59,732 nucleotides of DNA from positions 1 through 59,732 of IMG/VR virus record IMGVR_UViG_3300025813_000004, one strand, 5' to 3'. A model generated the notes under the pieces. The model was not told the origin of the DNA, ran no database searches, and worked only from the letters and a program-made list of their open reading frames with translations. Source of the stretch: a virus. Lineage: Duplodnaviria > Caudoviricetes. The translations under genes were made by a program, and so were the position numbers. Each line of letters begins with the position of its first letter. Within the stretch, counting starts at the first letter, position 1. This document shows, in pieces, positions 4,779-26,816 of the stretch.

Positions 4779-4791
4779 GGGGTGATAAACA

Positions 4792-6316: not shown

Positions 6317-6320
6317 ATAA

Positions 6321-6677: not shown

Positions 6678-6679
6678 AC

Positions 6680-8388: not shown

Positions 8389-8424
8389 ACAGCAGAATTT
8401 AATTATTGATTTGGGAGTGATTAA

Positions 8425-8877
8425 ATGGCAATAAAAAAAGAAATTAAAGCATATGTTGAGTGCGAGTTACGCGATTATTTACAAACAATACGCGATCTAG
8501 GCGAAGAACGACAACATATTATTGATAGTTTGCCAACCTTTGATGATAGCGGAATAAGAGGTGCAGGCATTAGTAGGACTTGTGAGAAAAAAGCGTTACA
8601 ACTTATCACTAGTAAAAGAATACTATATATAAACAGAACGATAGAGGCTATACAATCGGTTTTAGATTCATTGCCAGAAGAAAAGTATAAACTTGTGCAA
8701 TTAAAGTATTGGGCAAAAACACAAACTAAAGCGGATGAAGGAATCGCTAGAGAGTTGCATATTGAAAAAACAACATATTATAAATGGGTTAACGGCATAA
8801 TTCTAGCGGTTGCGGTTGAACTAGGTATGATTAATGGAGTAAAAGAGGAAAAAGTGCGGAGTTTTAGGGGTGCATAA
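8425..8877 (+). CDS. ArpU/RinA-family late transcriptional activator
   Basis: AYVECELRDY N-terminus; LPEEKYKLVQLKYW...IARELHIEKTTYY HTH; end of the early region. Confidence 0.85.
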   Translation: MAIKKEIKAYVECELRDYLQTIRDLGEERQHIIDSLPTFDDSGIRGAGISRTCEKKALQLITSKRILYINRTIEAIQSVLDSLPEEKYKLVQLKYWAKTQTKADEGIARELHIEKTTYYKWVNGIILAVAVELGMINGVKEEKVRSFRGA

Positions 8878-8895
8878 CGATTTATAATAGTAGTG
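8848..8895 (+). promoter_or_regulatory. Probable activator-dependent late promoter (-10 TATAAT at 8883-8888)
   Basis: Consensus -10 with no clear -35, directly after the RinA/ArpU gene. Confidence 0.55.
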
Positions 8896-8899
8896 TGAA

Positions 8900-9442
8900 G
8901 AGTTATATTAATACGCTTTTTACATAGCGAAAGCGAGTCTTAAGGGGCGAATGTCAAGCTGGACGTAAAACGTAGCCGTTGCCGATTAGTTAATATCGGA
9001 TGCTTGGCGGTGATGCTTAAACCGCCAACTATACCGTAACCTGTTAAACCCATACAAACGCTTAATTATCTTATGATAATACGGACTAGTTGTATGATGA
9101 GATGAAGCAGGAGCGCATTACGGTAAAATTAGCTAGATTGATCGCTAGCAAGGGCGTGACGGTAGTCACATGTACGTGAAAGCGTGGACGGGGCAATCAC
9201 GACTTTAAAAACACTGGGGTAACTAGAGTTTTGATAAAGGATATGGTTATGAATAATAATTATGTCGCTTAATTTTTAAATGGTTATCAAATATATTGCT
9301 TTTCGGTGGCGGGAAAACGAGAACCGAGCGAGTGTGAAATGTTGGACAAGAGCACAGACTTCTTATGTTAGTCATAAAACATAAATTAGCTGACGAGTAA
9401 GGCTACTTGTTGCGTGCCACAAGCGAAAGTAGACACGCCCTA
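8900..9442 (+). ncRNA. Large structured ncRNA candidate (ROOL/GOLLD class; ROOL-like by size)
   Basis: ~540 nt without a >=60-aa ORF, GC-richer than flanks. Many nested helices (9004-11/9021-28, 9032-39/9118-25, 9051-57/9090-96, 9151-58/9434-41, 9230-37/9284-91) and GNRA loops. Confidence 0.65.
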
Positions 9443-9490
9443 AATATAAAATAATTAAATTAATATAAATAAAATTAAGGATGTGTTTTT

Positions 9491-9661
9491 ATGGATGCTC
9501 AAGAATGTAAAATTAGATCAGAAGAACTACAAAAAGCGTCTTTACCTTTGTTAGAATTTTTGAATAAATACTATAACCCTCATACTTATGCGGTAGTTAC
9601 AGAGGGAAGTGTTGAAATTGTTTGCGGCGAAATGTCGGCTGGTTTACCAGTTAGGGACTAA
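9491..9661 (+). CDS. 56-aa hypothetical protein
   Basis: MDAQECKIRSEELQKASLPLLEFLNKYYNPH...; AAGGA RBS; followed by terminator. Confidence 0.6.
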   Translation: MDAQECKIRSEELQKASLPLLEFLNKYYNPHTYAVVTEGSVEIVCGEMSAGLPVRD

Positions 9662-9676
9662 ACATATAAATACAAC

Positions 9677-9705
9677 AAAAGCACTCTTTATAGAGTGCTT
9701 TTTTA
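9677..9705 (+). terminator. Rho-independent terminator
   Basis: AAAAGCACTCT-TAT-AGAGTGCTTTTTT. Confidence 0.8.
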
Positions 9706-10027
9706 ATGCGTAAATAAGAAAGGAGCTAAGTAATGCAACACAGACAATGTAGCGGATGTTTTCACTACGACCAAAAAAATGATACATGCAAAAGTCAATC
9801 ACCATGCTTGAGATGTTCTGGATTCGACCCTATTAATGTTTGCTATAGTGAGTTTAGCAAACGAGGGAAAAAAGAGATTAGAGGAATAGTTTAGATGAAA
9901 GATAAAGAAACGCAAGAAGCTGAATTTGAAAGCAACTGCAAGAAAATAAGTAAAAAAGATGCTTATAGAAAACATGTTTTAAGAATGACAGGATGCAGAA
10001 AAAATAAATACAATTAAATAAATAATT

Positions 10028-10053
10028 AAGTCACCTTAATTGGTGGCTTTTTT
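10028..10053 (+). terminator. Rho-independent terminator (UUAAUU loop)
   Basis: AAGTCACC-TTAATT-GGTGGCTT + T tract. Confidence 0.8.
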
Positions 10054-10074
10054 ATTTGAGAGAAGGTGTAATTT

Positions 10075-10287
10075 GTGGTAACGTTTAAAAAATATAATTA
10101 TAAGATTGAAATTTTAGATAGTGTTTTCGATAAGATGCTTGAGTATTGCGATTACGATAAAGATACTCTTATAAATAAAATATTACAATCTAATGTATAT
10201 ATAGGAGCAATAGAGCAAAAACATAAAATAAAAAATAGTGATTTAATATACAAAAAAATGGAGGTAATTAGATGCCTGTATGGATAG
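10075..10287 (+). CDS. hypothetical protein
   Basis: ORF with RBS. Confidence 0.55.
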   Translation: MVTFKKYNYKIEILDSVFDKMLEYCDYDKDTLINKILQSNVYIGAIEQKHKIKNSDLIYKKMEVIRCLYG

Positions 10288-10478
10288 AATTAAAACCGAA
10301 TAGCGTTATATTTAACAATAATATTCAAACTTTAGAGTATGGACTTAAAAAAATATTAAAGGACTGTGAAGTTGTTGAGTGCATTGATTATGGATATAAG
10401 AAAGTCTGGAAAGTAGATAAAGAACCGCACCAAAATAATATATATGGACTTAAATTTAATACTATTTTATCGGAATGA
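10272..10478 (+). CDS. hypothetical protein
   Basis: GGAGG RBS; coupled to neighbours. Confidence 0.55.
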   Translation: MPVWIELKPNSVIFNNNIQTLEYGLKKILKDCEVVECIDYGYKKVWKVDKEPHQNNIYGLKFNTILSE

Positions 10479-10717
10479 GGAGAAAAATGCAGATTAATGA
10501 CGAAACGATAATTATTTTATTATCTATGGCTATTGTGCTCCTTTTTATTTTAATAGTTTGTAAAATACTGAATAATAAAAAAGAAAAACAATTTTTAGAT
10601 AATCATAATATTTATAAGCAAATAGTTGCCGAGCTACAAGATTTTCAGAAAGAAATAGATAGAATAAAAAAAGAGTTTCAAAAAGACGTAGATAAAATAA
10701 AAAATAAAGGACTGTAA
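10475..10717 (+). CDS. small membrane protein
   Basis: One hydrophobic segment then coiled coil. Confidence 0.6.
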   Translation: MRRKMQINDETIIILLSMAIVLLFILIVCKILNNKKEKQFLDNHNIYKQIVAELQDFQKEIDRIKKEFQKDVDKIKNKGL

Positions 10718-10722
10718 AAAAT

Positions 10723-10962
10723 ATGTTTGGAATAGAAGTAATGCCAATAAGTAATTTTACATTTACTACATGGATGATTGATAAAATAAATTTAACCTTT
10801 GGACAATTTGCTATTAAATATTTATTTTTTAATTTAACAGTTGTATTGCCAATAGGATTAGCTATTATTGGTACATATCTGTATTTTGCAATGCATAGGA
10901 AAAACGAATTAGAAATGAAGCCAAATGATGGCAGATGGAGGGAAATGAGGAGATTTAAATAA
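10723..10962 (+). CDS. small membrane protein
   Basis: Hydrophobic segment; RBS. Confidence 0.55.
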   Translation: MFGIEVMPISNFTFTTWMIDKINLTFGQFAIKYLFFNLTVVLPIGLAIIGTYLYFAMHRKNELEMKPNDGRWREMRRFK

Positions 10963-11351
10963 TGAAAAGTTTGATATTTAGGGATATTAAAATAACTTAT
11001 CCTGACAATTGGGAAAAAGGAGAAGCATTAGGCTACGCAATGAAAGAAGCACATAATAGAGAAAACGGTATTATCAAAGAACTTATTTTCACAGAAACAG
11101 AAGAATATATTAATACCGAAGTAACGTATTTGGATCGTAAAGAAACCATTAAACCACAAATTGGTAATATTTTAAATAAAAAATGTATAATTTGCAATAA
11201 AAATATTAATGGTAAAGGAATTTTTATTGCAAATATACATGAAAAGATCATTTATTGCCATGAAGAATGTTTTAAAATAGCCGTTAAAAATAATGATAAA
11301 CCAATTATAAAAAAGCGTGTTTTTGGAAGTGCATATGGGAATACAAAATAA
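10962..11351 (+). CDS. hypothetical protein with C-terminal Cys/His zinc-like motif
   Basis: CIIC...CHEEC; followed by terminator 11369-11400. Confidence 0.6.
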   Translation: MKSLIFRDIKITYPDNWEKGEALGYAMKEAHNRENGIIKELIFTETEEYINTEVTYLDRKETIKPQIGNILNKKCIICNKNINGKGIFIANIHEKIIYCHEECFKIAVKNNDKPIIKKRVFGSAYGNTK

Positions 11352-11415
11352 TATAATTCAAGCAATTTAGCCGATATTTTTATATATCGGTATTTTTTAT
11401 GACTAAAAATTATAA

Positions 11416-11916
11416 GTGGAGCGTGATTTTATGATAATTGATATTGAAAAGCAAAATAAAACAGCTATGAAATGGATACTTAATTATTACGAGTTAAAAA
11501 AGGCTTACATAGAACGATCAGCAAACTTTAGCACATTAGGTGCAACGCAATATGATGGTATGCCACATGGAACTAGTGTTGGCAATCCATGTGCTAATAA
11601 AACAATGACATTATTAGATTTAGAAGAATCACGTAAATGGATTATGGTTATTGAAAAAATGGAACAAACATTATCTGAAAAAAGTAGAAAATATCTTGAA
11701 ATTAGAAGAGATGCTGCAAGCCAAATAAAGAGCAATAAGGGAATTGGTAGACCTGGATGGGTTGATTATGCCCAAGTAAAATACATAGATTGGTTTAAGT
11801 ATAGATATGGCAAGGAAATTGATGCACCAACCAAACAATGTATGACAGGATGGATGAATAAAATTTTAGATGTAACAATTAGAATTGCATTTAACGATAA
11901 AGTTTTAAAAATATAA
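11416..11916 (+). CDS. Second ArpU/RinA-like transcriptional regulator
   Basis: WILNYYE...QYDGMPHGTSVGNP...WIMVIEKM pattern; followed by TATAAT at 11951. Confidence 0.65.
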   Translation: MERDFMIIDIEKQNKTAMKWILNYYELKKAYIERSANFSTLGATQYDGMPHGTSVGNPCANKTMTLLDLEESRKWIMVIEKMEQTLSEKSRKYLEIRRDAASQIKSNKGIGRPGWVDYAQVKYIDWFKYRYGKEIDAPTKQCMTGWMNKILDVTIRIAFNDKVLKI

Positions 11917-12009
11917 TTTAGTCAATGACCAAAGTCAACGAAAACGGTAGTATAATTACATTATCGAAAGTATGCGAAACAGGACTTATAATTTTATAAG
12001 CATAATATT

Positions 12010-12045
12010 AAGCACTTACATCTTAATTGGTGTAGGTGCTTTTTA
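12010..12045. terminator. Hairpin terminator (UUAAUU loop), probably bidirectional
   Basis: AAGCACTTACATC-TTAATT-GGTGTAGGTGCTTTTT between convergent units. Confidence 0.8.
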
Positions 12046-12062
12046 GTTTGCAGAAAAAAGAG

Positions 12063-12218
12063 CTACTTTGCGGTAGCCCTCAGTTGTTGAATATATTCTT
12101 TTACTAATACAAGTTCATCTGGTGTAACTAATATAAAATGCCTAGTTGCATCGGGTGGAGCTTGTTTTTTTCTGCCTGAGTTGGCGCGTTTACCGCCATG
12201 AGTTGATTTAGTTTGCAT
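12063..12218 (-). CDS. small basic DNA-binding protein (HGGKRxNSGRK motif)
   Basis: MQTKSTHGGKRANSGRKK...; AAGGAG RBS. Confidence 0.7.
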   Translation of the reverse strand: MQTKSTHGGKRANSGRKKQAPPDATRHFILVTPDELVLVKEYIQQLRATAK

Positions 12219-12231
12219 ATAGGTAATCTCC

Positions 12232-12429
12232 TTAGTTGTTAATATAAATGTCTTTTTTACCGTTATATTCGTTTGAAATAAACACTTCGCAATCTCCATC
12301 ATTATAAACGATGATGTTTTCAGGGTATTCATTTTCTTCTAACTCAATTTCACAATCAGGAGATAAAGTAAAATCATTGTCGCTGACCTCAAATGAAATT
12401 TTAAAATTTGTTTTATTTACATATCTCAT
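12232..12429 (-). CDS. hypothetical acidic protein (moron cassette)
   Basis: AAGGAG RBS; opposite strand to the late operon. Confidence 0.6.
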   Translation of the reverse strand: MRYVNKTNFKISFEVSDNDFTLSPDCEIELEENEYPENIIVYNDGDCEVFISNEYNGKKDIYINN

Positions 12430-12568
12430 TTTTAAAAAACTCCTTTTATCAGCCGCTTCTTTTCAAGCTGTCGCTGTATCTTTTAACTTGATTTAAGTAT
12501 AACATATCAAAACAATAATGTCAACATGATTTTATAAACTTTTTTCAAAAAATAAAAAGAGGTTAAAT

Positions 12569-12883
12569 ATGCTACAAAAGTTAAATATCACAAGATTAAA
12601 AGGCAAAGCAATATCAATACTTAATGATGAAATACACGAAAGAGATAACTATAAATGTATTATTGATGGTTGTTATAATAATATAGATGATGATGAAAAG
12701 TTTCATCATGAAAAACGTAATGGATTAAAGAACGATGTGATACAAGAAGGAATATCATTATGTTACAAGCACCATCAAGACAGGCATTTTGGCGATAATA
12801 GTAAAGAAATAAAGCGACAATGCGTTACATATTTAAGCAAGATATATCCTGATTATTGGAAGGATGCTGATATAGATGGATAA
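12569..12883 (+). CDS. HNH-like small nuclease
   Basis: ERDNYKCII.GC...FHHE...LCYKHHQDRH. Confidence 0.65.
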   Translation: MLQKLNITRLKGKAISILNDEIHERDNYKCIIDGCYNNIDDDEKFHHEKRNGLKNDVIQEGISLCYKHHQDRHFGDNSKEIKRQCVTYLSKIYPDYWKDADIDG

Positions 12884-13265
12884 ATTTGAAATACCAGAAA
12901 ACCCTACACAATTACAATTAAATCAATCATTGTCAACATGCGCTAACAATATTTCAAAGATAATAGATATAGTAGCCAAATACAAAGCCAACGCATCAAT
13001 AGCACAGACCAAATACAAAAGGTTACTAGCAAAAGCTAAAATAAAGAATGCAAGCGCAAAGACAGCGACAATGCAAAATGCTTTAGCAGAAATAGATGAA
13101 AGTGTAATAACGGCACAGGATGAGCTAGAACAAGCAAATGCGATATTTTTAGTAGCAGAAGCGGAGCTGGAAGGCTGGCAAGCACAGTTTGTAGCAGTAC
13201 GTAAGATGTGCTCGTTAAAAGAAACAGAAGTTAAGAACGGATTAGATAGATATACAGGTGGATAA
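12876..13265 (+). CDS. hypothetical coiled-coil protein
   Basis: Helical Ala/Lys-rich ORF coupled to upstream gene. Confidence 0.65.
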   Translation: MDKFEIPENPTQLQLNQSLSTCANNISKIIDIVAKYKANASIAQTKYKRLLAKAKIKNASAKTATMQNALAEIDESVITAQDELEQANAIFLVAEAELEGWQAQFVAVRKMCSLKETEVKNGLDRYTGG

Positions 13266-15996: not shown

Positions 15997-16755
15997 ATGA
16001 GCAGATTAATTAATATAAATAATTATATTGGAAATAAATATGGCAGATTAAAAGTCATGTATGAAGTTCCAATAAAAAACAAAGGCAAGCGTAGAGTTCA
16101 TTGCAAGTGCGATTGTGGTAATGAGATGGATGCAGATTTATATTCATTGCGAAGATCATTTACTCGTTCTTGTGGTTGTTACAATAATGAAATTAGAAAA
16201 GTAACATGCAGCAGTAATTTTTATAAAGGTTCAAATACAATTATTAAATATGCTGAACATGCAGAAGTTGTAATTGTTGATAATAACAATAATGAAAAAT
16301 GCCGTACCATTATAGATTTAGATGATGTTGATAAGATAATAGAATATAGATGGGTTTTTAATGGCGATTATATAATGACAAATAAAACAAATGATGGTAA
16401 TCCAATTTTGATGCATCGTTTTATTTTGCCTGTTGAAAATTTTGTTGACCATATTAATCACAATAAACTAGATAATAGAAAATGTAATTTACGAGAAGCA
16501 ACCAATCAGCAAAACATTATGAATTCTCGTATAAAATCAACAAACAAATCAGGATTTAAAGGCGTAAGCCGTGATAATAAACGAAATAAATGGTCTGCTA
16601 CTATTGGCTTTAATTATAAAACAATTCATTTAGGACGTTTTAATAATAAAGAAGATGCAATAAAAGCTAGACAAGAAGCTGAACTTTTATATTTTGGGGA
16701 ATTTTCACCACTTCATAGTGTTGATAATTCTGGAGGTGATTTCGCCCTTGGCTAA
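15997..16755 (+). CDS. HNH homing endonuclease with C-terminal AP2 domain
   Basis: CKCDCG, VDHINHNKLDNRKCNLR, SGFKGV...KWSATI...HLGRF...EDAIKARQEAE. Confidence 0.92.
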   Translation: MSRLININNYIGNKYGRLKVMYEVPIKNKGKRRVHCKCDCGNEMDADLYSLRRSFTRSCGCYNNEIRKVTCSSNFYKGSNTIIKYAEHAEVVIVDNNNNEKCRTIIDLDDVDKIIEYRWVFNGDYIMTNKTNDGNPILMHRFILPVENFVDHINHNKLDNRKCNLREATNQQNIMNSRIKSTNKSGFKGVSRDNKRNKWSATIGFNYKTIHLGRFNNKEDAIKARQEAELLYFGEFSPLHSVDNSGGDFALG

Positions 16756-18065: not shown

Positions 18066-18551
18066 ATGGATAATCGTGATTTTAAATTAATGTTTGCCGA
18101 TAAGATAATAGTTGATGGTGTTTGCTATATGCAGGTTGCGACAGGATCAGATAAAGAAAAGAAAATAACTACTACTACGTTTATGAACGAAGAACAATTT
18201 AAAAATACATTCAATCATACCTATGATGGTAAAGTTGATATGATTGAAATTAATCAACCATATTATGATATGAAAAATTTAAAATATAAACCAACAAAAA
18301 TAACCGAAGTATTAAATACTGAAACAAATAAATGGGAACGTGTTAATAGTCTTGCTGATGTTAATAAAGATGATATTTATAGAATATTTGAACTTGATAG
18401 GATTACTCCTGTATTAGACGACATGACAAAAGAACATATAATGTATGCTATTAAAAATCCCTATATTGCTGATAACGGAAGAAATTGCGTAGAATCATAT
18501 ACACTACGTGAAGTTAGAGATTATTTTACCGAAATATTAAACAATAATTAA
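18066..18551 (+). CDS. hypothetical protein inserted between terL and portal
   Basis: AAGGAG RBS; 161-aa ORF. Confidence 0.65.
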   Translation: MDNRDFKLMFADKIIVDGVCYMQVATGSDKEKKITTTTFMNEEQFKNTFNHTYDGKVDMIEINQPYYDMKNLKYKPTKITEVLNTETNKWERVNSLADVNKDDIYRIFELDRITPVLDDMTKEHIMYAIKNPYIADNGRNCVESYTLREVRDYFTEILNNN

Positions 18552-18568
18552 AACAGGAGGACTGCCTA

Positions 18569-20044
18569 ATGAGCAAGAAAAAGCAAGCTGTCAAAAGGCA
18601 GCCTACTACGAAACAATCTACCGAAAGAAGAAAATCTACACAAGATTCATTTTCTAACGTCTTAGGGCGATTGGGCATGGACCAGCCGGGAATGATGGGC
18701 GCAACGGATTACACACTAACCCGACTCACGAGAAATTATAATTTGCTTAACACACTTTATCGTAATTCTTGGATAGGTAAAAAGATAATTGAAACAATCC
18801 CGGGCGATATGGTTAAGAACTGGTTTTCAATTACAGCAGACCTAAAACCTGAAATTACTGACCGATATAATGACCTAGAACAGCGAACCTGCACAAAAGA
18901 CAAAATCAATGAAGGTTTGTGCTGGGGCGATTTATACGGCGGTGCTGCTGCTATTATAATGATTGCTGGCGAAGAGGATTTATTAGATCAGCCACTTGAA
19001 CTTGATAATATAATGCCAAATAGCTATTGTGGATTGTTAATTGTTGATAGATGGTCTGGTGTATGTCCGGGAATTGAACGCATTGAAGATATTAGAGACC
19101 CTGAATTTGGATTACCTATATGGTATGAAGTGCGTGATGTTACTAAAGACAATGCAACGGTTAGAGTACATCATAGCCGTGTATTGCGATTTTGTGGACG
19201 TAGATTGCCATACTGGGAAAACATGTCGGAAATTGGTTGGGGTGCATCACAATTAGAGCATGTATTTGATGAACTTGCAAAACGTGACAATACATCTTGG
19301 AATATTGCAAGCCTAGTATTCCAAGCGAATTTGATTGTTAATAAGGTTAGTGACTTTGACCAAATAATAGCGGCAACTGATCCAGACGTGCAACGAGACT
19401 TTTATGCTGTAAAATCAGCGCAAAACCAAATGCGTAATAATAATGGCATGATGATTATAGGTAATAACGATGAAGTAACTGCAATGAATTATACTTTTGC
19501 AGGGCTTAATGATATATATGAAAGTCAAATGCTAGATATAGCAGGAGCAGCAGAAATTCCAGTAACTAAACTATTTGGGCGAGCACCAGCCGGAATGAAT
19601 GCAACTGGCGAATCAGACTTGCAAAACTATTATGATATGGTATCACAACGCCAAGAATCACAATTAAAACCAATAATAAATAAATTACTACCTGTTATGT
19701 TTATGTCTGAGTTTGGACAAGTTCCAGATGATTTAGGGATTAGATTTAATGCAATACAAACACCTACAGAGGATAAAATGGCCGATATTGTAGCAAAGAA
19801 AACAACTTGTATATATCAAGCATATGATTCTGGTATAATAAGTCAGCAAATGGCATTAAAAGAATTACAAGAATTGTCGTATACTACTAATATGTTTAGT
19901 AGCGTAACTAATGAAATAGTTGAAGCTGCAAGCAATGATATTACTTTAAAACCGGAAACAGAATTAGTAGGTGAAGATTATGGATTGGAAACCCCAACGC
20001 AGAATAGAAACGGACTACCAGAAATTACTAACGAACCTATTTAA
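18569..20044 (+). CDS. Portal protein (DUF1073-type)
   Basis: LYRNSWI..., VHHSRVLRF, IPVTKLFGRAPAGMNATGESDLQNYYD. Confidence 0.92.
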   Translation: MSKKKQAVKRQPTTKQSTERRKSTQDSFSNVLGRLGMDQPGMMGATDYTLTRLTRNYNLLNTLYRNSWIGKKIIETIPGDMVKNWFSITADLKPEITDRYNDLEQRTCTKDKINEGLCWGDLYGGAAAIIMIAGEEDLLDQPLELDNIMPNSYCGLLIVDRWSGVCPGIERIEDIRDPEFGLPIWYEVRDVTKDNATVRVHHSRVLRFCGRRLPYWENMSEIGWGASQLEHVFDELAKRDNTSWNIASLVFQANLIVNKVSDFDQIIAATDPDVQRDFYAVKSAQNQMRNNNGMMIIGNNDEVTAMNYTFAGLNDIYESQMLDIAGAAEIPVTKLFGRAPAGMNATGESDLQNYYDMVSQRQESQLKPIINKLLPVMFMSEFGQVPDDLGIRFNAIQTPTEDKMADIVAKKTTCIYQAYDSGIISQQMALKELQELSYTTNMFSSVTNEIVEAASNDITLKPETELVGEDYGLETPTQNRNGLPEITNEPI

Positions 20045-20795
20045 TCAATTTAGTACTCAAATAATAACCTCTCGTAAACGTGATGTAATTATAAGATTAA
20101 CAAATAAAATAATTAAATCAGATTGGTTTAAAGATTTTGCTACAACAGCAGCTTATAAAATGATAACGATGACTAGAAAAGATACTGGCAAATCATGGCG
20201 GCAAGCTGCGCAAAAATCATCACATGGCAGAAAAATATTTGAACTATTAAAAAATGAAACAGATAACGATAAAACATTTCAAAGTTTACTTGATAGGAAT
20301 GTACATTATATTAAATCAGCACCTATTGATATGGCTGAACGAATGGTTAAACATGTGTCTAGCGCGCAAATCGCAGGCAGAAGACCTGAGGAGATAGCTG
20401 ACGAGCTAAAAAAGTTATTTCCACATATGACTAAGGCTAAGGCTCAATTGATAGCTAGAACAGAATCTGCTAAAGCATCATCAGAATTAGTACAGTCTAG
20501 AGCAGAACGATTAGGCTTTAATTGGTATATATGGTCTAGTGTTCAAGATCAACGTGTAAGAAGTTCTCACAAGCACATGCAAGGGGTTCTAGTTAATTAC
20601 AATGATCCGCCTGATCCTGAGAAATTAGCAGGTGAAAAAAAGTCATACGGACACTACAACGCAGGCGAAATATTTAACTGTAGGTGTTTTGCATCCGTAG
20701 TATTTGATATTAACGAAATATCTTGGCCACACAAAGTATATTACAATAATAAAATTGTAATGATGACAAAAGCGGAATTTAAGCGTATAATGTAA
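19980..20795 (+). CDS. Minor head morphogenesis protein (Mu gpF / SPP1 gp7 family)
   Basis: AQLIARTE, YIWSSVQDQRVRSSH, GEIFNCRC. Confidence 0.92.
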   Translation: MDWKPQRRIETDYQKLLTNLFNQFSTQIITSRKRDVIIRLTNKIIKSDWFKDFATTAAYKMITMTRKDTGKSWRQAAQKSSHGRKIFELLKNETDNDKTFQSLLDRNVHYIKSAPIDMAERMVKHVSSAQIAGRRPEEIADELKKLFPHMTKAKAQLIARTESAKASSELVQSRAERLGFNWYIWSSVQDQRVRSSHKHMQGVLVNYNDPPDPEKLAGEKKSYGHYNAGEIFNCRCFASVVFDINEISWPHKVYYNNKIVMMTKAEFKRIM

Positions 20796-20797
20796 AT

Positions 20798-20905
20798 ATG
20801 GGATAGCCCCGGAGTAATTGCCCGGCGCGACAAGACGAACTCTGAACGTCTTCCCATTTAAAATAACAATTTAATATTCAGAGAAAAATACTACTGACAG
20901 AGGAG
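20798..20905 (+). promoter_or_regulatory. Structured, pseudoknot-capable RNA leader upstream of HNH gene
   Basis: Closing stem 20798-802/20853-57; hairpins 20809-25 and 20832-52; loop CTCTGAA (20840-46) complementary to TTCAGAG (20877-83). Confidence 0.55.
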
Positions 20906-20915
20906 TGGTTTTGTT

Positions 20916-21533
20916 ATGGAACAATTTAAAAGATGTGTTCAATGTAAGAAAATAAAAGGTATATCTTTATTTTATAAAAATAAAAGCAAACCTGATGGAT
21001 TACAAAATATGTGTAAAGATTGTACAAAAGAAAACGATACAAAAAGAAATAAATCAGGTAAAAGAGCAAAATATTATATTGAATATTATAGATTGAGAAT
21101 TAAAACCGATGAAAAATTTCATGAAAAAGAAAAGATAAGGGCAAAAGAGTATTACAAAAGAAAATCGTTAGAAAATCCTGAAATTTATAAAGAAAATCGT
21201 AAAGAAAATCGTAAAAGGGAATATCAGAAAAACAGAGAAAAATACATATTAAAAGCTTATAAGCGATTAAAAAAATATAAAAATACAAAAGGTAGTTTTA
21301 ATCGTAAACAGTTAGAAGCTAAATTTTCTCTTTATGGGAATAGATGTGCTTATTGTGGAAGTGCCGAAAAAATAACTATAGATCATGTAATACCTTTAAA
21401 TAGAAATGGAACTCATTTCCCAGCAAATTTAGTTCCTTGTTGCCAAAAATGTAATTCTGCTAAAAGAGACAGAAAAGGATGGATACCTCATTTACCACAT
21501 AGTAATATTTCTACTATTTTTCATATAATATGA
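20916..21533 (+). CDS. HNH endonuclease with N-terminal zinc finger
   Basis: KRCVQCK...CKDC; CAYCG...TIDHVIP...NLVPCCQKCNSAK. Confidence 0.9.
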   Translation: MEQFKRCVQCKKIKGISLFYKNKSKPDGLQNMCKDCTKENDTKRNKSGKRAKYYIEYYRLRIKTDEKFHEKEKIRAKEYYKRKSLENPEIYKENRKENRKREYQKNREKYILKAYKRLKKYKNTKGSFNRKQLEAKFSLYGNRCAYCGSAEKITIDHVIPLNRNGTHFPANLVPCCQKCNSAKRDRKGWIPHLPHSNISTIFHII

Positions 21534-21584
21534 TAGCCTGTCTCCTGCCACATTATATAAGGCAAATAATACTAAGGCGGTGTT

Positions 21585-21767
21585 ATGATGTACAAATACC
21601 ACGATTGTAAAGAACGCAAATATGTTGATGATACCGAACCAGAATGGGATAACATTAAACAAGAATGGTTTATTCGTAGTGATAGTGATGACAATGAGGG
21701 CATTCATGGTATTAAATATTGTCCATTTTGCGGTGAGAAATTAGATTATGACAAGGCAGTGTTATAA
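21585..21767 (+). CDS. cassette mini-gene (CPFCG zinc motif, ends DKAVL)
   Basis: Bounded by junction repeats. Confidence 0.7.
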   Translation: MMYKYHDCKERKYVDDTEPEWDNIKQEWFIRSDSDDNEGIHGIKYCPFCGEKLDYDKAVL

Positions 21768-21795
21768 ATGTTTAATAGAAAGGGGAGACAAGTAA

Positions 21796-22182
21796 ATGGG
21801 TTGCGACATAGAAATGTATGCAGAAGTAAATAAAAACGATAAGTGGGAACTTGTTAAAGATGGACAATTTGAATATTGCGTATATGATGGTCGTAATTAC
21901 GACCTATTTGCTTTACTAGCTGACGTTAGAAATAAAAATAATATAAAACCTATTGTAGAATGCAGATATTTGCCAGATGATTGTTGCGAATATGTTCGAG
22001 ACGCTTTCTATAACGATTGTAATATTCATTCTATTAATTGGTATACACTAGATGAATTATTTAAATATAAAAAAGAGATTGAATTTATTAGTGACTGTTT
22101 TTGGAATAATATATGTAAATTATTAAACTACGTTAAGGAAGATGAGAAAAATATAAGAATTATATTTGGATTTGGTAATTAA
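21796..22182 (+). CDS. hypothetical phage protein (MGCDI...RNYDLFALLADVRN...RIIFGF)
   Basis: Strong RBS; recognisable conserved phage pattern. Confidence 0.75.
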   Translation: MGCDIEMYAEVNKNDKWELVKDGQFEYCVYDGRNYDLFALLADVRNKNNIKPIVECRYLPDDCCEYVRDAFYNDCNIHSINWYTLDELFKYKKEIEFISDCFWNNICKLLNYVKEDEKNIRIIFGFGN

Positions 22183-22198
22183 AGGTGGTGCAATCATA

Positions 22199-22399
22199 AT
22201 GGATTGGATTAGCATAACAGATCGTGGCGATTATATAGAAATACAAACAAAAAGAAAAAACAATAATGATGAAGATATTAAACATTTGCAATTTAATCTA
22301 CGCCAAAAATATAAGTCAATTAATAAATATGTAATAGTAGATAATTATGGAAACATTATGCAGATTACACCAAAGCGTATTGACAAGGCGGTGTTATAA
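22199..22399 (+). CDS. cassette mini-gene (starts MDWIS, ends DKAVL)
   Basis: Start shares 20 bp with the 23288 gene start. Confidence 0.65.
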   Translation: MDWISITDRGDYIEIQTKRKNNNDEDIKHLQFNLRQKYKSINKYVIVDNYGNIMQITPKRIDKAVL

Positions 22400-22606
22400 A
22401 TGGATAAAAAACCATATTTTAGATTAAATGAAGAAGAATTTGGAATAAAATTCAGAGAAGAATATAAAAAGTTTATGAAAAATATTACACTTTCACCTTC
22501 CGATCAAACAATACAAAGAATGTTTGATTTAGCTGATGGTTATAATAAACCATATTTTTATGATAGAGCAATTGATTTGATTGTTTTACCAAAGGCGGTG
22601 TTATGA
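22400..22606 (+). CDS. cassette mini-gene (ends PKAVL)
   Basis: Bounded by junction repeats. Confidence 0.7.
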   Translation: MDKKPYFRLNEEEFGIKFREEYKKFMKNITLSPSDQTIQRMFDLADGYNKPYFYDRAIDLIVLPKAVL

Positions 22607-22609
22607 ATA

Positions 22610-22819
22610 ATGAGATTTATTAAATCATTGTTTTGTTTACATCAATGGGATAAAGCAGAAAATAATTTAATTTATTGCTCCAATCAATATAAAATACTAT
22701 ATAATATATATGGTGAAACAAGAGAATATTGGTTTTGTAAAAAATGCAATAAAATTATAGCGCAAAATATACATAATACGCCTATAAGTTATGTATCTGC
22801 TGATAAGGCGGTGTTGTGA
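22610..22819 (+). CDS. cassette mini-gene (FCLHQW...CKKC, ends DKAVL)
   Basis: Bounded by junction repeats. Confidence 0.7.
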   Translation: MRFIKSLFCLHQWDKAENNLIYCSNQYKILYNIYGETREYWFCKKCNKIIAQNIHNTPISYVSADKAVL

Positions 22820-23031
22820 TGTTTAATGCTTTAAAAACAAATAGAAAATTGCGAAAAGAAATTGAAGAAATGGAATTAGATCATCTAGTTAGGTTAAATA
22901 GATTAATAGATGAAAGAGACTTGGCATATAAAATTATTGAAAATGATAAACAGCGCATAAACGAATTAGAAGACGCTTTATTTGAAATACGTATGAATAA
23001 CAAACTAACTGCTGATAAGGCGGTGTTATGA
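22816..23031 (+). CDS. cassette mini-gene (coiled coil, ends DKAVL)
   Basis: Bounded by junction repeats. Confidence 0.7.
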   Translation: MMFNALKTNRKLRKEIEEMELDHLVRLNRLIDERDLAYKIIENDKQRINELEDALFEIRMNNKLTADKAVL

Positions 23032-23288
23032 TGGATGATTTAGCAAATATATATATACAACTAAACGATCAACTAAACAAGCAAATAAACAAAGTAGTAA
23101 GTAAAAAAAACAAAAACTCAGCAACTACTATAGAAGATATAAAAATAGAAGTAAAAAAAGTATTAGATAAATTTGAAGTAAAAAAAAGATACAAAACAAA
23201 AACTTATATTAATGATAGGAAAGAAGTTACTATAGAATTTATGCCATTACCTCAACATATTAAAATATCTTTGGAGGTAACAAAATAA
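23028..23288 (+). CDS. hypothetical protein
   Basis: Starts in the last junction repeat. Confidence 0.65.
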   Translation: MMDDLANIYIQLNDQLNKQINKVVSKKNKNSATTIEDIKIEVKKVLDKFEVKKRYKTKTYINDRKEVTIEFMPLPQHIKISLEVTK

Positions 23289-23677
23289 TGGATTGGATTA
23301 GCATGAAGGATAGATTACCAGAAGATAGTCAACGAGTAATTATATGTGATGATGATTATAAAAATATATGGATATGTTTTTTTATAAAAGATAAACAAAA
23401 ATTTATGCTTAGTGCAATATCAGATTGCCCAGCAGAATTTAGTGTAAATCGTGTAACTCACTGGATGCCACTACCAGAATCGCCACAAGATAGTTTTAGA
23501 ACTAAATTTGCTGATGACTATAAAAACTATAAATATGTAACCGACATATCTTTTTATGGTAAAGAAAATGCAGATATATTTTTGGAATATTGGAGCGCAG
23601 TAGATAAAAAAGATTTTGATAAAATTAAAGAATTATCATTAATGATTGACTCCATAATTGCGGATCGTAAATCATGA
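23288..23677 (+). CDS. DUF551-like protein
   Basis: MDWISMKDRLP...VTHWMPLPESP. Confidence 0.85.
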   Translation: MDWISMKDRLPEDSQRVIICDDDYKNIWICFFIKDKQKFMLSAISDCPAEFSVNRVTHWMPLPESPQDSFRTKFADDYKNYKYVTDISFYGKENADIFLEYWSAVDKKDFDKIKELSLMIDSIIADRKS

Positions 23678-23711
23678 AATACTGCAAATATTGTCAAAAG
23701 AGGTGCTATAG

Positions 23712-24017
23712 ATGATTGAAATATCAAGGAACGATAAATGGATACCTATTAATCCAAGCATTGGAGATATACTAAAACCTAATGATATTTATAGATACGA
23801 TAGTAACCCGAAACTTTTATATAGATGTACTGATTTTCGACAAACCTCAACTACCACTTACGAAATAACTTGTATCCCTGAGTGTTGTCCTACTATAAAT
23901 TCCAAAGGGGAAATAGATAGGATACATTGCAATAAATGCACTTTAGATGATAAAGGATTACATAAATGCGAAAAATATTCTATAGATAGTAATAAATGCA
24001 AATGGTATGAATCATGA
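23712..24017 (+). CDS. hypothetical Cys-rich protein
   Basis: GAGGTG RBS; flanked by a 28-bp imperfect direct repeat. Confidence 0.6.
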   Translation: MIEISRNDKWIPINPSIGDILKPNDIYRYDSNPKLLYRCTDFRQTSTTTYEITCIPECCPTINSKGEIDRIHCNKCTLDDKGLHKCEKYSIDSNKCKWYES

Positions 24018-24211
24018 AATACTGCCCATACTGTCAACGACAAGTTAGACCTATATCGCGACGCAAAGGTGTAAACTGGTTGCTAGTAATAGCACTAACG
24101 TTATTAAGTGGTGGTATATTCCTTGTTATTTATTTAGCATACAAACTATTATGTGGCATGTTTAGAAGTAGTGAAGATTGCGTATGTCCTATATGTAACG
24201 CAAAACTTTAA
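24014..24211 (+). CDS. LITAF-like zinc-ribbon membrane protein
   Basis: CPYC - hydrophobic hairpin - CPIC. Confidence 0.7.
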   Translation: MKYCPYCQRQVRPISRRKGVNWLLVIALTLLSGGIFLVIYLAYKLLCGMFRSSEDCVCPICNAKL

Positions 24212-24226
24212 TTTAATACGATACCA

Positions 24227-24256
24227 AAGAACACTTATATTTAGGTGTTCTTTTTA
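24227..24256 (+). terminator. Rho-independent terminator
   Basis: AAAGAACACTTA-TATT-TAGGTGTTCTTTTT. Confidence 0.75.
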
Positions 24257-24280
24257 TTTTGCCCAAAAGGAGATTATGTG

Positions 24281-24712
24281 ATGACACGATATACACAAGC
24301 AATAACAGTTGATAGTAATTTCATGTATACATTATTGATTAAACGTAATAATGAGCCAAGCAAAGGATTATTATCTGGGGTTGGTGGACATATTGAAAAA
24401 AACGAATCTCCTGAGAATTGTATGATTCGCGAATGGGCAGAAGAAGTTGGATCACCATTACTGAAAGATACACGTATGATTAAATTAATGACGCAGATCC
24501 TTCCAGATTGTGAAAATCATATATTTGGTATTATATTGCCACAAGTCGATATTTACTTTATGCATAAAGATGATACTGACAACGAAGGTTTAATAAGATG
24601 GCATCATATAGCAGGTGAAAATATTATGGATATTAACAATAAAAATGTTGCATGGGATGGACTTATTCCGTTGTGTTTAAATTTGCTATGCAAGGAGATG
24701 TCAAAGGTATGA
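24281..24712 (+). CDS. NUDIX hydrolase
   Basis: Nudix box GGHIEKNESPENCMIREWAEEVG. Confidence 0.85.
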   Translation: MTRYTQAITVDSNFMYTLLIKRNNEPSKGLLSGVGGHIEKNESPENCMIREWAEEVGSPLLKDTRMIKLMTQILPDCENHIFGIILPQVDIYFMHKDDTDNEGLIRWHHIAGENIMDINNKNVAWDGLIPLCLNLLCKEMSKV

Positions 24713-24942
24713 AATGCCCACAATGTGAAACAGACGTTACCCCAATCTACAAACAATCAATACAACTTAGTTATATAGCATTATTTATTATCTCTGCAAT
24801 CACGCAGGGATATTTTTTATTTATATATGTTCCATTTAGATTATTTGCAATATTTATGACAGGAGAACATCATTGTCCAATATGTAATCATAATTTTGGA
24901 AGAGCAACAAAGTATTTTAATAACTACATAAGGAGGGATTAA
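24709..24942 (+). CDS. Second LITAF-like zinc-ribbon membrane protein
   Basis: MKCPQC - hydrophobic segment - HHCPIC. Confidence 0.7.
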
Positions 24943-24943
24943 G

Positions 24944-25108
24944 ATGCCGTTGGAAAAAGGTTCTTCACAAAAAGTAATTTCTGAGAATATATCAGAGCTA
25001 GTTAAGTCTGGTCATTCTCAAAAACAAGCAGTTACTATTGCAATGAAGTCTGCTGGCAAGTCGTGGCATACAGATAAAGCAATTGATAATTATCATATTC
25101 CTAAATAA
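24944..25108 (+). CDS. small conserved phage head-module protein
   Basis: [33 protein letters not shown]...; AGGAGG RBS. Confidence 0.75.
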
Positions 25109-25168
25109 AGGAGGTGATCCAATCTACAGCAGGTTAATGTCCTGTTAATTTAATAGAAAGGAGAAACT

Positions 25169-26260
25169 ATGACGATAAATATAAACAATTATGAGCCCAT
25201 GACTGGACAAATGATTAGAAATGATGGTGGTGTAGTGAATATCGCAGAAATACTTGCATATATGGCAAGTGGTGCAGGAATGGTAAAACCAGACAATTAT
25301 TTATATGTCGGTAAAAATGGTAATGACACTACTGGTGATGGTAGCGCAAATTTACCTTATTTAACTATTAGTAAAGCTATTACTGTAGCAAGTTCAGGAA
25401 CAACAATTTTTGCTTTTCCGGGTACATATGTAGAAAATATTACATTTAAAGCAGGCGTATATATTACATCACCTGTAAAGTTTGGGGTATATATTACCGG
25501 TAATCATGTTGCTAATTTTTCGGGTACAGTTATTGTTGACGGAATTATTTTGCAATCTACGGCAGGAACTACATTATCGTTTTCCGGTACAGGAGCACAG
25601 AATTTACAGATACTTGGCGGTTCTAGTGTTAATTCTGGTTCTGGTGATGCAATAAATTGGACAAACACAAATACAAGTTCAAAACTTTATTTTGAAGATG
25701 GTACTTGTAATGTTTCTACTAGTGGAGCTAGTGCAAGATGTTTTTATAGCACTACAGGAGCAGCAGGCAGTTTTATTGCAAATAGAGTTAGCTTTAAAGT
25801 CAATAATCCTGACAATGTTTGCTTAGCTATTGGCGGATCTATTTCGTTTACTCACACGTCAGATCAAATCATTGGCCAAGTAACAGTTGCAAATACAGCA
25901 AGTGCCACTATTGCAATGGTGAGTATGGTAACATCTACCGTGCCAGCTTTAAATACTACATCATCTGGAACAGTAACAGTTGTTAATGCTACAGTTACTA
26001 CTACAGCATCACCAGCATTTACAGGTGCAGGAATACTTGTACATGTTGCTATTTTATACACAAGTACAGGCGTTGGTGGTGCATCTACGTTAAATGGTGG
26101 ATTAGGACCTATTGGTTTACCTATGGGTAGCATAAAACTTAGATCATCGGCTTTAGTTCCGGCTGGACAAGTTGCCGCAGGGCAAAATACAGGGGCATTT
26201 GAATTCGATGGTACACATTTATATTTTACAATTGGGACTACAAGAAATGTAGTAATTTAG
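25169..26260 (+). CDS. Putative virion-associated beta-helix/decoration protein
   Basis: YVGKNGNDTTGDGSANLPYLTISKA motif; Gly/Thr/Ser-rich; in head module. Confidence 0.6.
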   Translation: MTININNYEPMTGQMIRNDGGVVNIAEILAYMASGAGMVKPDNYLYVGKNGNDTTGDGSANLPYLTISKAITVASSGTTIFAFPGTYVENITFKAGVYITSPVKFGVYITGNHVANFSGTVIVDGIILQSTAGTTLSFSGTGAQNLQILGGSSVNSGSGDAINWTNTNTSSKLYFEDGTCNVSTSGASARCFYSTTGAAGSFIANRVSFKVNNPDNVCLAIGGSISFTHTSDQIIGQVTVANTASATIAMVSMVTSTVPALNTTSSGTVTVVNATVTTTASPAFTGAGILVHVAILYTSTGVGGASTLNGGLGPIGLPMGSIKLRSSALVPAGQVAAGQNTGAFEFDGTHLYFTIGTTRNVVI

Positions 26261-26273
26261 AGGAGGAAAGAAA

Positions 26274-26816
26274 ATGGCAATAGATTTAAACGTAATGACT
26301 TCGGCTGGTAGTAAAACTAGCACGGAGGGAATTTATGCAACATATGGAGTAGCTGGTGTGGCAAATACCCCGGCAGCAACACCAACCGATGTTGTAATTT
26401 TAAATGGTTCAGCAACAAAAACAGTAAAAATTAAAAGGGTAACAGTATCAGGACTTGCAACAACAGCAGGCAGCATGAACGTATCACTTATTAAACGTAC
26501 AGCAGTAAATACAACAGGAACTTCAACAGCTCCTAGTATTGCACAGTTTGATAGTTTAGATGCGGCAGCAACAGCAGTACCTAAATTATATACCGCAAAC
26601 CCATCTGCTTTAGGTGCAGGAGTAGCGTTATCTTCACAAACATTAAATTTTGGTGTAGCTGGAGCGGCAGGAACAGTTGTTTTTGATTTTGCAAATCGTA
26701 ATGATAAAGCAATTTACTTGCATGGTGTAGCGGAAGGTTTAGCAATTAATTTAAATGGTGAAGCAGTTCCAACCGGTGGTACATTTGGTTACACTATTGA
26801 ATTTGAAGAAATCTAA
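26274..26816 (+). CDS. Putative virion structural protein
   Basis: Ala/Thr/Gly-rich beta protein with strong RBS. Confidence 0.6.
   Translation: MAIDLNVMTSAGSKTSTEGIYATYGVAGVANTPAATPTDVVILNGSATKTVKIKRVTVSGLATTAGSMNVSLIKRTAVNTTGTSTAPSIAQFDSLDAAATAVPKLYTANPSALGAGVALSSQTLNFGVAGAAGTVVFDFANRNDKAIYLHGVAEGLAINLNGEAVPTGGTFGYTIEFEEI

Follow-up and report, generated by a model that had tools for sequence, protein, structure and literature searches.

How does a phage come to carry a row of small, mutually unrelated genes that are all joined by one and the same short sequence? This question is raised by a 1.46-kb array of gene cassettes in IMGVR_UViG_3300025813_000004, an IMG/VR record of a virus (Duplodnaviria; Caudoviricetes). 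The window analysed here is the whole virus record, 59,732 bp with direct terminal repeats, from a temperate phage that encodes a CI-like repressor and an anti-repressor. An initial annotation, made from the sequence alone, had described the array as mini-gene cassettes separated by a conserved junction repeat and had likened it to an integron-like capture system. Its account of the repeat and of the genes has largely stood, and its proposed mechanism has not. The explanation favoured below, at somewhat better than an even chance, is that the junction copies descend from one sequence and that genes have been exchanged by short-homology recombination at this common translational-coupling junction.

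The repeated junction

The 15-mer AAGGCRGTGTTRTRA was found exactly at positions 21574, 21753, 22385, 22592, 22805 and 23017, as first described, always on the plus strand and packed into 1.46 kb. A search of the whole record returned these six forward copies, no reverse copy and no match to a control pattern, leaving no exact copy outside the array. When up to two mismatches were allowed, seven matches were found in the window, the seventh being AAGGCAGTGATTTAA at 15982 with two mismatches; none of 100 dinucleotide-preserving shuffles reached this number (shuffle mean 1.05). The motif does not behave as a genome-wide ribosome-binding site, since in the window it is confined to the array and in the relatives described below it occurs in one or two copies confined to the same unit. 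The copies, and the one junction of another type that lies among them, are as follows.

21574–21588, plus strand: junction J1, AAGGCGGTGTTATGA; non-coding, giving the Shine-Dalgarno sequence and start to cassette c1
21753–21767, plus strand: junction J2, AAGGCAGTGTTATAA, followed by ATGTTTAAT, a remnant of an 'MMFN' gene start
22182–22198, plus strand: junction of the other type, AAGGTGGTGCAATCATA, homologous to the 5' junction of DUF551 genes
22385–22399, plus strand: junction J4, AAGGCGGTGTTATAA, from the exact 15-mer search
22592–22606, plus strand: junction J5, AAGGCGGTGTTATGA, from the exact 15-mer search
22805–22819, plus strand: junction J6, AAGGCGGTGTTGTGA, which with its flanks agrees over 32/33 bp with the second junction of relative L008
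23017–23031, plus strand: junction J7, AAGGCGGTGTTATGA, from the exact 15-mer search

Judged by its parts, the 15-mer appears to be a classic translational-coupling junction, made up of a long Shine-Dalgarno sequence (AAGGcGGTG), a spacer, and a TGA or TAA that overlaps or abuts the ATG or GTG of the next gene. Set against the canonical extended Shine-Dalgarno sequence AAGGAGGTG, AAGGCGGTG has a single internal mismatch. At each copy the next open reading frame (ORF; 60–86 aa) begins 2–10 nt past GGTG, and a reading of the ORFs and their upstream sequences bore out the claim that the same repeat supplies the stop, the Shine-Dalgarno-like sequence and the next start. Related ribosome sites are found at other genes of the phage (AAGGAGTGTT; TAGGCGGTGA, before 3002; AAGGCAGTGA; and AAGGCGGTAA, before 53122).

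Three positions vary among the six copies, and all three changes are synonymous. Moreover, the identity of certain pairs extends past the 15-mer, much as the initial annotation had it: the copies at 21753 and 22385 share 4 bases on the left, 14/15 of the core and 3 bases on the right, while those at 22805 and 23017 share 8 left-hand bases (CTGCTGAT). The orphan frame reported ahead of the first copy is also present, with 19 open codons and no start codon.

One point of the first description required revision. The sequence AAGGTGGTG at 22182 had been taken for a degenerate copy of the repeat; its surroundings (GGTGCAATCATAATGGATTGGATTAGCATAA) align instead with the 5' junctions of DUF551 genes, namely window 23270–23310 and L007 11735–11769, and window 22187–22222 is 91.7% identical to the latter. 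The spacings between copies follow from the coordinates as described (179, 632, 207, 213 and 212 bp, with 632 being 429 + 203 through 22182), and the ~210-bp periodicity read from them is absent from the relatives (264 bp in L008). An idea that such ~210-bp units might form circles in helical phase was rejected, as division of the spacings by 10.5 leaves.05,.33,.71,.29,.19,.86 and.14, without pattern.

The cassette genes

The genes of the array and those that follow them in the same operon are listed here.

21585–21767, plus strand: cassette c1, 60 aa, zinc-ribbon-like (HxC...CPFC), ending YDKAVL
21796–22182, plus strand: cassette c2, 128 aa, with its own Shine-Dalgarno sequence AAAGGGGAG and no KAVL tail (phrog_10141, E 3.7e-21)
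22199–22399, plus strand: cassette c3, 66 aa from its ATG, ending IDKAVL
22400–22606, plus strand: cassette c4, 68 aa, orphan, ending LPKAVL (Atlas model of low confidence, pLDDT 0.52)
22610–22819, plus strand: cassette c5, 69 aa, orphan, CxH...CxxC, ending SADKAVL (weak phrog_7696 match)
22816–23031, plus strand: cassette c6, 71 aa, orphan, helical by composition, starting MMFN and ending TADKAVL
23028–23288, plus strand: cassette c7, 86 aa, starting at J7 and ending at an ordinary GGAGGT ribosome site
23288–23677, plus strand: DUF551 gene (PF04448, E 3.1e-14), with an ordinary, non-repeated ribosome site
23712–24017, plus strand: 101-aa gene in the same operon, also with an ordinary, non-repeated ribosome site
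24014–24211, plus strand: LITAF-like zinc-ribbon membrane gene, 65 aa (PF10601), 92% identical in amino acids to its L007 and L008 homologues; the 3' anchor of the variable stretch

Five of the ORFs, 60–71 aa in length, end in KAVL, and their coordinates, lengths and [D/P]KAVL tails agree with those first given. That they are mutually unrelated also stands at the level of BLASTP, where comparison of 37 ORFs gave nothing at E<0.01 except homologues of DUF551, LITAF, NUDIX and ORF114. In an alignment of cassette interiors as DNA, none of 15 pairs exceeded codon-shuffled controls, a weak test with a harsh scoring scheme. Three cassettes, c4, c5 and c6, are database orphans that matched only themselves among 5.8 billion proteins (in a word-seeded search limited to similar lengths), and tblastn of c1, c4 and c6 against the phage collection gave no match. 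By comparison, c2 falls into a viral family that is widespread and functionally uncharacterised, with Atlas viral cluster scores of 0.95–0.96. The first ~9 codons of c3 (MDWISITDR) are those of a DUF551 gene start and the remainder is unrelated; c3 is thus a chimera, and it points to a crossover just inside coding sequence, nine codons into a DUF551 gene.

At the local composition the probability of a stop is 0.10 per codon, and an open frame of 60–70 codons would arise by chance with a probability of ~0.002–0.0006. The cassettes are probably real genes, because such long frames are improbable and seven of them follow one another end to end along the strand, each behind a ribosome site. The near-equal size of c3–c6 (66–71 aa) has a rough permutation P of ~0.014 against a hand-assembled length pool of the genome's other small genes. 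Given their context, a moron-type unit in a genome that has a Gad1 homologue elsewhere, it is conceivable that the cassettes have accessory or counter-defence roles.

Conservation of nucleotides or of a peptide

The common KAVL tail could be a conserved peptide or the mere reading of a conserved nucleic acid. In the 23 long genes of the phage, AAG accounts for 17% of lysine codons, GCG for 10% of alanine codons and GTG for 9% of valine codons, so that the probability of KAVL being written AAG GCG GTG TTA is 8.6e-4 per copy. J1 ends no gene at all, and in the relatives the same bases belong to a transcribed leader. Moreover, the tail comes and goes among homologues of c1. P0006, at 50% identity, ends IDKVVL (PIDKVVL), and P0007 ends ...CPFCGEKL with no tail; in P0007, L031, L034, L037 and L040 the frame ends 3–7 residues after CPFC and the tails all differ, leaving c1 (DYDKAVL) and P0006 as the only members of the family compared that have a junction-type tail, DK[A/V]VL. 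The L041 match to c1 is an internal motif of a 202-aa protein.

Because minority codons are fixed, J1 is non-coding and the tail of the c1 family is an add-on, the constraint lies at the nucleotide level: the conserved object is the nucleic acid, with the KAVL tail a by-product of the ribosome site. L034 illustrates how an embedded ribosome site can dictate a C-terminus, since it carries another such site, GGAGGTGCAGTTATGA, that is read as LEVQL*. The KAVL case indicates that conserved terminal peptides can be nucleic-acid by-products, a caution for the motif-based annotation of proteins.

Position in the head module

The array lies in a gap of ~4.3 kb in the head module, the order of which is terminase, portal (PF06381, Phage_portal_3), MuF-like gene, gap, 363-aa gene, 180-aa gene, DUF2213/protease, cement and major capsid. 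The gap is the most AT-rich part of its neighbourhood, at 25–30% G+C. Gene positions agree with the placement first given, between the gpF-like (MuF-like) gene and the protease and behind an HNH gene. Its borders and the non-cassette features within it are the following.

19971–20795, plus strand: Mu-F-like head morphogenesis gene (PF04233, E 1.1e-15; phrog_324, E 5.7e-60), left border of the variable region
20916–21533, plus strand: HNH endonuclease gene (PF01844, E 1.1e-10), in this phage only
21532–21588, plus strand: surviving 3' half of a promoter/stem-loop/ribosome-site leader module, including J1
24226–24253, plus strand: intrinsic terminator-like hairpin that closes the unit, also at L008 12472–12499 and L007 13227–13254
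26830–28092, plus strand: DUF2213/head maturation protease gene (PF09979, E 3.2e-47; phrog_530), right border of the gap

Relatives and their breakpoints

Five related IMG/VR records, L007, L008, L009, L010 and L014, were recovered by MuF protein-guided scans and DNA-pattern scans. L008, L009 and L010 have one arrangement, which reduces the set to three effective comparators, namely L007, the L008 type and L014. MuF identity to the window is 85% for L007 and 75–77% for L008, L009 and L010. A scan of IMG/VR for the 17-mer AAGGCGGTGTTATGATG gave nine loci, comprising these five relatives and four unrelated single matches (L016–L019), and blastn of 18500–26300 against 50,697 phage records gave no match. 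In scans of genome contigs with an alignment of c1, distant CPFCG-motif proteins were found in metagenome-assembled genomes and no prophage relative was seen (L037, L040 and L041 of five loci). Other matches were rejected: the sole IMG/VR match to a pair of junction cores 190–220 bp apart, L011, comes from repeated sequence within the gene for a 1257-aa structural protein and is unrelated, and a metagenome scan for the leader 19-mer added no relative, its three matches having arisen by chance in GC-rich DNA.

In L007 and L008 the gap after MuF opens with a 114-aa ORF, followed by a conserved module of ~120 bp that contains a promoter, a stem-loop and the junction (L007 11140–11265; L008 11164–11284; in L014 the module is at 7725–7850 on the minus strand). 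The predicted promoter in L007 and L008, TTGATA-18-TATAAT, is an 11/12 match and the best promoter-like site of the region. The leader then forms a predicted Y-shaped stem-loop of ~50 nt, followed by AAGGCGGTGTTATGA. The 95-nt leader folds at -28.6 kcal/mol (z -2.4), which is modestly better than shuffles, 5 of 200 being as good. There are three leader variants, near-identical to one another, and when L008 and L014 were searched against Rfam the leader matched no family; the stem-loop might serve as a 5' stabiliser, an attenuator or a processing site.

In the window only the 3' half of this leader survives (21532–21588). It is identical at 57/57 positions to L008, L009 and L010, 96.7% identical to L007 and 98.3% identical to L014. 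MuF homology to L007–L010 runs to 20800 and then ends, and homology restarts at 21532, inside the stem-loop, with the window diverging upstream of that point. The HNH gene is without counterpart in L007, L008, L009 and L010, and it has replaced what the relatives have here, namely the 114-aa ORF, the promoter and the stem-loop's 5' half; with its right-hand boundary inside the stem-loop it looks like a free-standing homing-endonuclease insertion. Transcription of the array in the window would start at a promoter-like site at 20763–20791 or come from read-through.

At the other end, nucleotide homology of the window to L008 and L007 is back from the start of the LITAF gene (24014), and the terminator region is 93.8% identical to that of the relatives. 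In L007 and L008 the unit is bounded by the promoter and a single terminator, and the array is thus the variable central part of a moron-type accessory unit that runs from promoter to terminator.

What lies between these ends differs. Compared with L008 as DNA, the window is 69.6% identical in MuF, has no similarity in the cassettes, and is 57/57 identical in the leader half, which ends exactly at the junction stop codon. Window 22795–22827, around J6, matches the second junction of L008 (11524–11556) at 32/33 positions, or 97%. The L008 unit reads leader-J-cF-J-cG and that of L014 reads leader-J-(cG-like gene), so that the two differ by exactly one cassette and one junction; the 5' third of the L014 gene resembles cG at 71% over 119 bp (BLASTP E 0.001).

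The leader itself also differs in position. L007 and L014 agree at 98.4% over a 126-bp module of promoter, leader and junction, outside which neither flank is homologous, and the module of L014 is 97.5–98.4% identical to that of L007 or L008. In L014 it lies outside the head module, between early genes (homologues of window 12554–13258) and the terminase genes. Because the 126 bp are near-identical without flanking homology and stand at a different genome position in L014, the promoter-leader-junction module is a discrete, portable unit. L014 and the window have early-region genes in common (4355–13258, in patches of 75–98%), and their terminase-to-tail genes are without DNA similarity; L014 is a mosaic relative with a different structural module.

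In the comparison that the initial annotation had proposed, cassette content varies among the relatives and several breakpoints fall exactly at the repeat, in what is a small sample; the same genes in a fixed order are not what the relatives carry. Short extensions of identity are scattered around the junctions. TGTTTAAT, which gives MMFN, stands to the right of J6, of the L007 junction and of L008-J2, with a remnant after J2 ahead of the ribosome site of c2, and CTGCTGAT stands to the left of J6, J7 and L008-J2. Such patchy flank extensions would fit the expected trace of repeated crossovers in and around a common junction.

Proposed explanation

The identity of the copies points to their common descent, because it runs past the functional core into the flanks (J2, J6, J7, L007 and L008-J2). 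The explanation considered slightly favoured is short-homology recombination at a common translational-coupling junction. One ancestral junction would have given rise to the identical copies, and small genes would have been gained, lost and swapped by homologous or short-homology recombination between junction copies or in a few adjacent codons. Each incoming 'gene + junction' unit would already be coupled in translation, and its product would gain the KAVL tail as a by-product. Phage annealases are reported to recombine short, divergent sequences (PMC5499656, PMC8093625), and the phage encodes candidates for such a process.

58300–59190: AAA_24 protein, weak Sak4-like match
57396–58286: PDDEXK/DUF3799 exonuclease
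5602–6036: SSB
6321–6677: RusA

These four appear to make up a single-strand-annealing module, and it is conceivable that the AAA_24 (Sak4-type) annealase, the PDDEXK exonuclease and SSB help in the exchange.

Several observations count against this explanation. The comparators are few, and a single series of samples yielded every one of them. They hold one or two copies of the junction, confined to the unit, so that the six-copy array is peculiar to this phage. Equally sharp breakpoints without any repeat are seen at the LITAF gene start (24014) and stop (24207), and the repeat is therefore not needed for exchange; judging from the LITAF edges and the c3 crossover, the region exchanges DNA at gene boundaries in general. 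The near-equal size of c3–c6 is left without explanation, and repeats of 15–33 bp are short substrates if homologous recombination is to be efficient. P0006, at 50% identity, retains DKVVL, which shows long-term selection on the junction; part of the identity could thus be owed to function, with no need of recent copying. Finally, no junction-to-junction recombinant was seen directly in the assembled contigs of four sequencing runs that contain parts of the region, which are mostly fragments. A 17,276-nt Logan contig of run X1 covers 19500–26500 with no differences, and X1 is perhaps the source sample and so not independent; the contigs of X2–X4 are short and of low depth. One X2 contig has three joints (23033>23292, 23309>22898 and 23325>23452), with the letters between them unknown.

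A more ambitious form of short-homology exchange, to be held only tentatively and rather unlikely, would make the junction a minimal expression-ready linker, such that any DNA falling between two 15–33 bp copies is at once transcribed from the conserved promoter and coupled, and the array a capture site and nursery of orphan genes. Exchange would be driven by an annealase, possibly via small circles, and the result would be functionally an integron without an integrase. This would explain why c3–c6 are AT-rich, without relatives among the 5.8 billion proteins and uniform in size.

Phage mosaicism has been debated as exchange at special linkers versus random exchange followed by selection, and clean linkers are rare. 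In this temperate phage the cassette boundaries are marked by a far smaller linker, no more than a ribosome site whose stop and start overlap. If the junction were confirmed as a recombination substrate, translational-coupling signals could double as shuffling sites, and orphan genes could be gained without disturbing expression.

Alternative explanations

The main rival to descent with short-homology exchange, though unlikely, is that the 15-mer is a shared regulatory operator through which a phage or host protein or RNA co-regulates translation of the cassettes, the breakpoints being incidental. This is also compatible with recombination. The motif is asymmetric, is held in one orientation, overlaps the Shine-Dalgarno sequence and stands immediately before the starts of unrelated genes, much as the start-associated sequences (SAS) of cluster K mycobacteriophages do (PMC3203893). 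Neither the C at position 5 nor the TT that follows GGTG can pair with the canonical anti-Shine-Dalgarno sequence, and both are invariant in 10/10 copies. Moreover, P0006, in retaining DKVVL, implies a similar junction, for which AAGGTGGTGTTA is a candidate form. Against an operator, no binding factor came to light as a candidate, all copies fall within 1.46 kb rather than being spread over many genes, and most genes of the same operon (c2, c8, c9 and LITAF) are without the motif; the identity of flanks outside the 15-mer points to copying.

A somewhat less probable alternative is tandem duplication of one mini-gene of ~210 bp, after which the interiors diverged and the junction was held by selection or gene conversion. 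The four consecutive units of 203–213 bp, with the rough permutation P of ~0.014 given above, would be expected from duplication, and c6 has both the MMFN start and the ADKAVL end. The interiors, however, have no residual similarity as protein or, in the weak 15-pair test, as DNA; c1 and c5 are Cys/His-rich where c6 is helical, homologues of c1 elsewhere are without the tail, c3 opens with a DUF551 start, and in L008 the same junction joins other unrelated genes.

Dedicated site-specific capture of the integron kind, in which a recombinase recognises the 15-mer and inserts or excises circular cassettes, is very unlikely. The layout does resemble it, with a promoter-bearing leader and a first site followed by promoterless cassettes that each end in a site, and the difference between L008 and L014 is one clean 'cassette + site' indel. 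A search of the whole phage record for a tyrosine recombinase (PF00589) gave 0 matches, however, where control genomes gave 14/14, and an inverted-repeat scan of 21500–23350 gave 35 AT-rich pairs, none of which recurs at or includes the junction, so that no attC-like palindrome or hairpin is seen there. No second array of this pattern turned up in IMG/VR, and the one or two copies in relatives and the equally sharp repeat-free breakpoints also tell against such a mechanism, which the initial annotation had inferred. It had named the adjacent HNH gene and the serine recombinase among candidate drivers, and nothing ties either to the array. The HNH gene is absent at this position in L007–L010, which share the MuF context and still have the junction; the sole recombinase is a large serine integrase that lies 24 kb away beside the repressor.

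46780–48222, minus strand: large serine integrase (Resolvase, Recombinase and Zn_ribbon_recom), beside the repressor and 24 kb from the array

A serine integrase beside a repressor is the usual prophage integration module.

It is equally improbable that [D/P]KAVL is a C-terminal tag for capsid packaging, degradation or localisation. The array does sit in the head module near the MuF and protease genes, and the three variable positions of the six copies are all synonymous. Conserved terminal signals are found on T4 internal proteins, and cargo peptides are found in HK97-fold shells. A precedent is available in the T4 internal proteins, diverse anti-restriction proteins that have only a capsid-targeting sequence in common (PMC3012670, PMC12373910). 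The fixed rare codons, which imply constraint on nucleotides, and a first copy that ends no gene argue against a tag, as do the position of the L014 unit outside the head module and the mostly tailless cassettes of the relatives; five residues would also be very short for a signal.

Independent convergence of the junctions on one optimal ribosome site, without common ancestry, is likewise very unlikely, for although Shine-Dalgarno variants occur elsewhere in the genome (at 15982, before 3002 and before 53122) and unrelated phage L034 has an analogous embedded site, six exact 15-mers share the same non-consensus C plus 4–10 bp of flanks, and other junctions of the same operon vary freely.

Likeness to known systems

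No comparable array was found described in the literature, as searched in open-access full text. In operation the array is akin to a small-scale PeSL, in appearance to SAS and in layout to an integron, and it belongs to none of these three classes because it has no tyrosine recombinase or attC, its internal repeats carry no promoter or stem-loop, and its copies are undispersed.

Promoter-early stem-loop (PeSL) cassettes in T4-type phages are the best documented linkers, and they are reportedly also treated by Comeau et al. (2014). In the experimental work on them (Arbiol et al. 2010, PMC2839356), repeated promoter/stem-loop/Shine-Dalgarno motifs bound the ORFan indels that distinguish phage phi1 from RB49, and crossovers that map to the interval from the Shine-Dalgarno sequence to the -10 box give rise to PeSL circles. 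In both systems, copies of a regulatory motif border the ORFans of a hyperplastic region and indels between relatives are bounded by the motif, and each PeSL ends in a Shine-Dalgarno sequence and start codon, as the junction does here. The likeness extends to the head of the array, ~120 bp of promoter, stem-loop and Shine-Dalgarno sequence conserved far above its flanks and found at two genome positions among the relatives, to the orphans c4, c5 and c6, to breakpoints at the junction, and to the indel of cF and one junction between L008 and L014. Unlike PeSLs, the promoter and stem-loop are here limited to the head module of the array, and the five internal copies are 15–33 bp of coding sequence. 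These repeats lie inside coding sequence, so that the cassettes, instead of being insulated from one another in transcription, are transcribed together and coupled in translation. The phage itself is temperate, with a serine integrase, Phage_portal_3, MuF and a DUF2213 protease, and is not T4-type.

The SAS of cluster K mycobacteriophages, described by Pope et al. (2011, PMC3203893), are 13-bp sequences with the consensus GGGATAGGAGCCC that occur in 11–19 copies over the non-structural half of the genome, 3–7 bp before start codons, about half of them with a 17-bp inverted-repeat extension. Their function is suspected to be regulatory (PMC3203893). On that description, the junction resembles them as a short, asymmetric repeat with a Shine-Dalgarno core in one orientation (here 6/6 on the plus strand, 2–10 nt before starts), in carrying bases that cannot pair with 16S rRNA and sometimes an upstream stop, and in its absence from the rest of the genome. 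Compared with the same description, it differs in having six copies within 1.46 kb of the head module, no inverted repeats and an unrelated sequence.

The likeness to integrons lies in a promoter-proximal first site, followed by promoterless, unrelated small cassettes that each end in a site and whose content differs among relatives. A common promoter is present in L007 and L008 (the TTGATA-18-TATAAT site), with the HNH gene in its place in the window, and this is a resemblance only. Integrons differ by IntI, a tyrosine recombinase (PF00589), and by the attC palindrome, neither of which is seen here, where the site is a ribosome-binding sequence read as protein.

The linker or boundary-sequence model of modular exchange in phages is said to go back to Susskind and Botstein, Juhala et al. 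and Clark et al. Like morons and linkers, the present system is a promoter-to-terminator unit between two late genes, with exchange at short conserved gene-boundary sequences; L007 and L008 have both promoter and terminator, the window has the terminator, and the unit lies between MuF and the protease module. It differs in that the unit has about ten genes and that six of its boundaries are the same 15-mer, a degree of repetition not found described in the open-access literature searched.

Finally, the internal-protein loci of T-even phages, reportedly the subject of Repoila et al. (1994), are also polymorphic, with small, diverse, non-essential head-associated genes that have only a short terminal sequence in common. 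There the common element is an N-terminal capsid-targeting peptide under selection as protein, whereas here it would be a C-terminal by-product of constraint on nucleotides.

Other features of the genome

The phage has three HNH genes (7486–8001, 15997–16755 and 20916–21533), and the one at 15997–16755 directly precedes the large terminase gene. Downstream of the array, a second LITAF-like protein (PF10601; 24652–24942) is 30% identical to that of 24014–24211; the two LITAF-like genes flank a NUDIX hydrolase gene (24281–24712), and all three are kept in L007. The Gad1 homologue is a 338-aa protein (54650–55666) with a full-length Pfam match to Gad1 (Gabija anti-defence 1; E 9.3e-62), encoded just upstream of a 549-aa AAA/SbcC-like gene and the exonuclease/Sak4-type pair.

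Repeats of other kinds are found as well. At 51258–51737 at least ~22 tandem copies of a 15-bp unit lie inside ORF 51248–51901 (217 aa; phrog_7713, E 3.8e-51), which would encode a pentapeptide-type repeat protein because the unit is repeated in tandem within its frame. A 27-bp tandem repeat is present at both ends of the record, at 9–259 (5 copies) and 59536–59732 (3 copies), within the direct terminal repeats. Moreover, another start junction is repeated at 4135–4176 and 5496–5537, where GTGATAACGTGA precedes codons for M-N/S-x-L-K-x-CPFCG; the two copies are 76% identical over 42 nt, and the one at 4135–4176 opens a homologue of Lar-like restriction-alleviation proteins (phrog_599).

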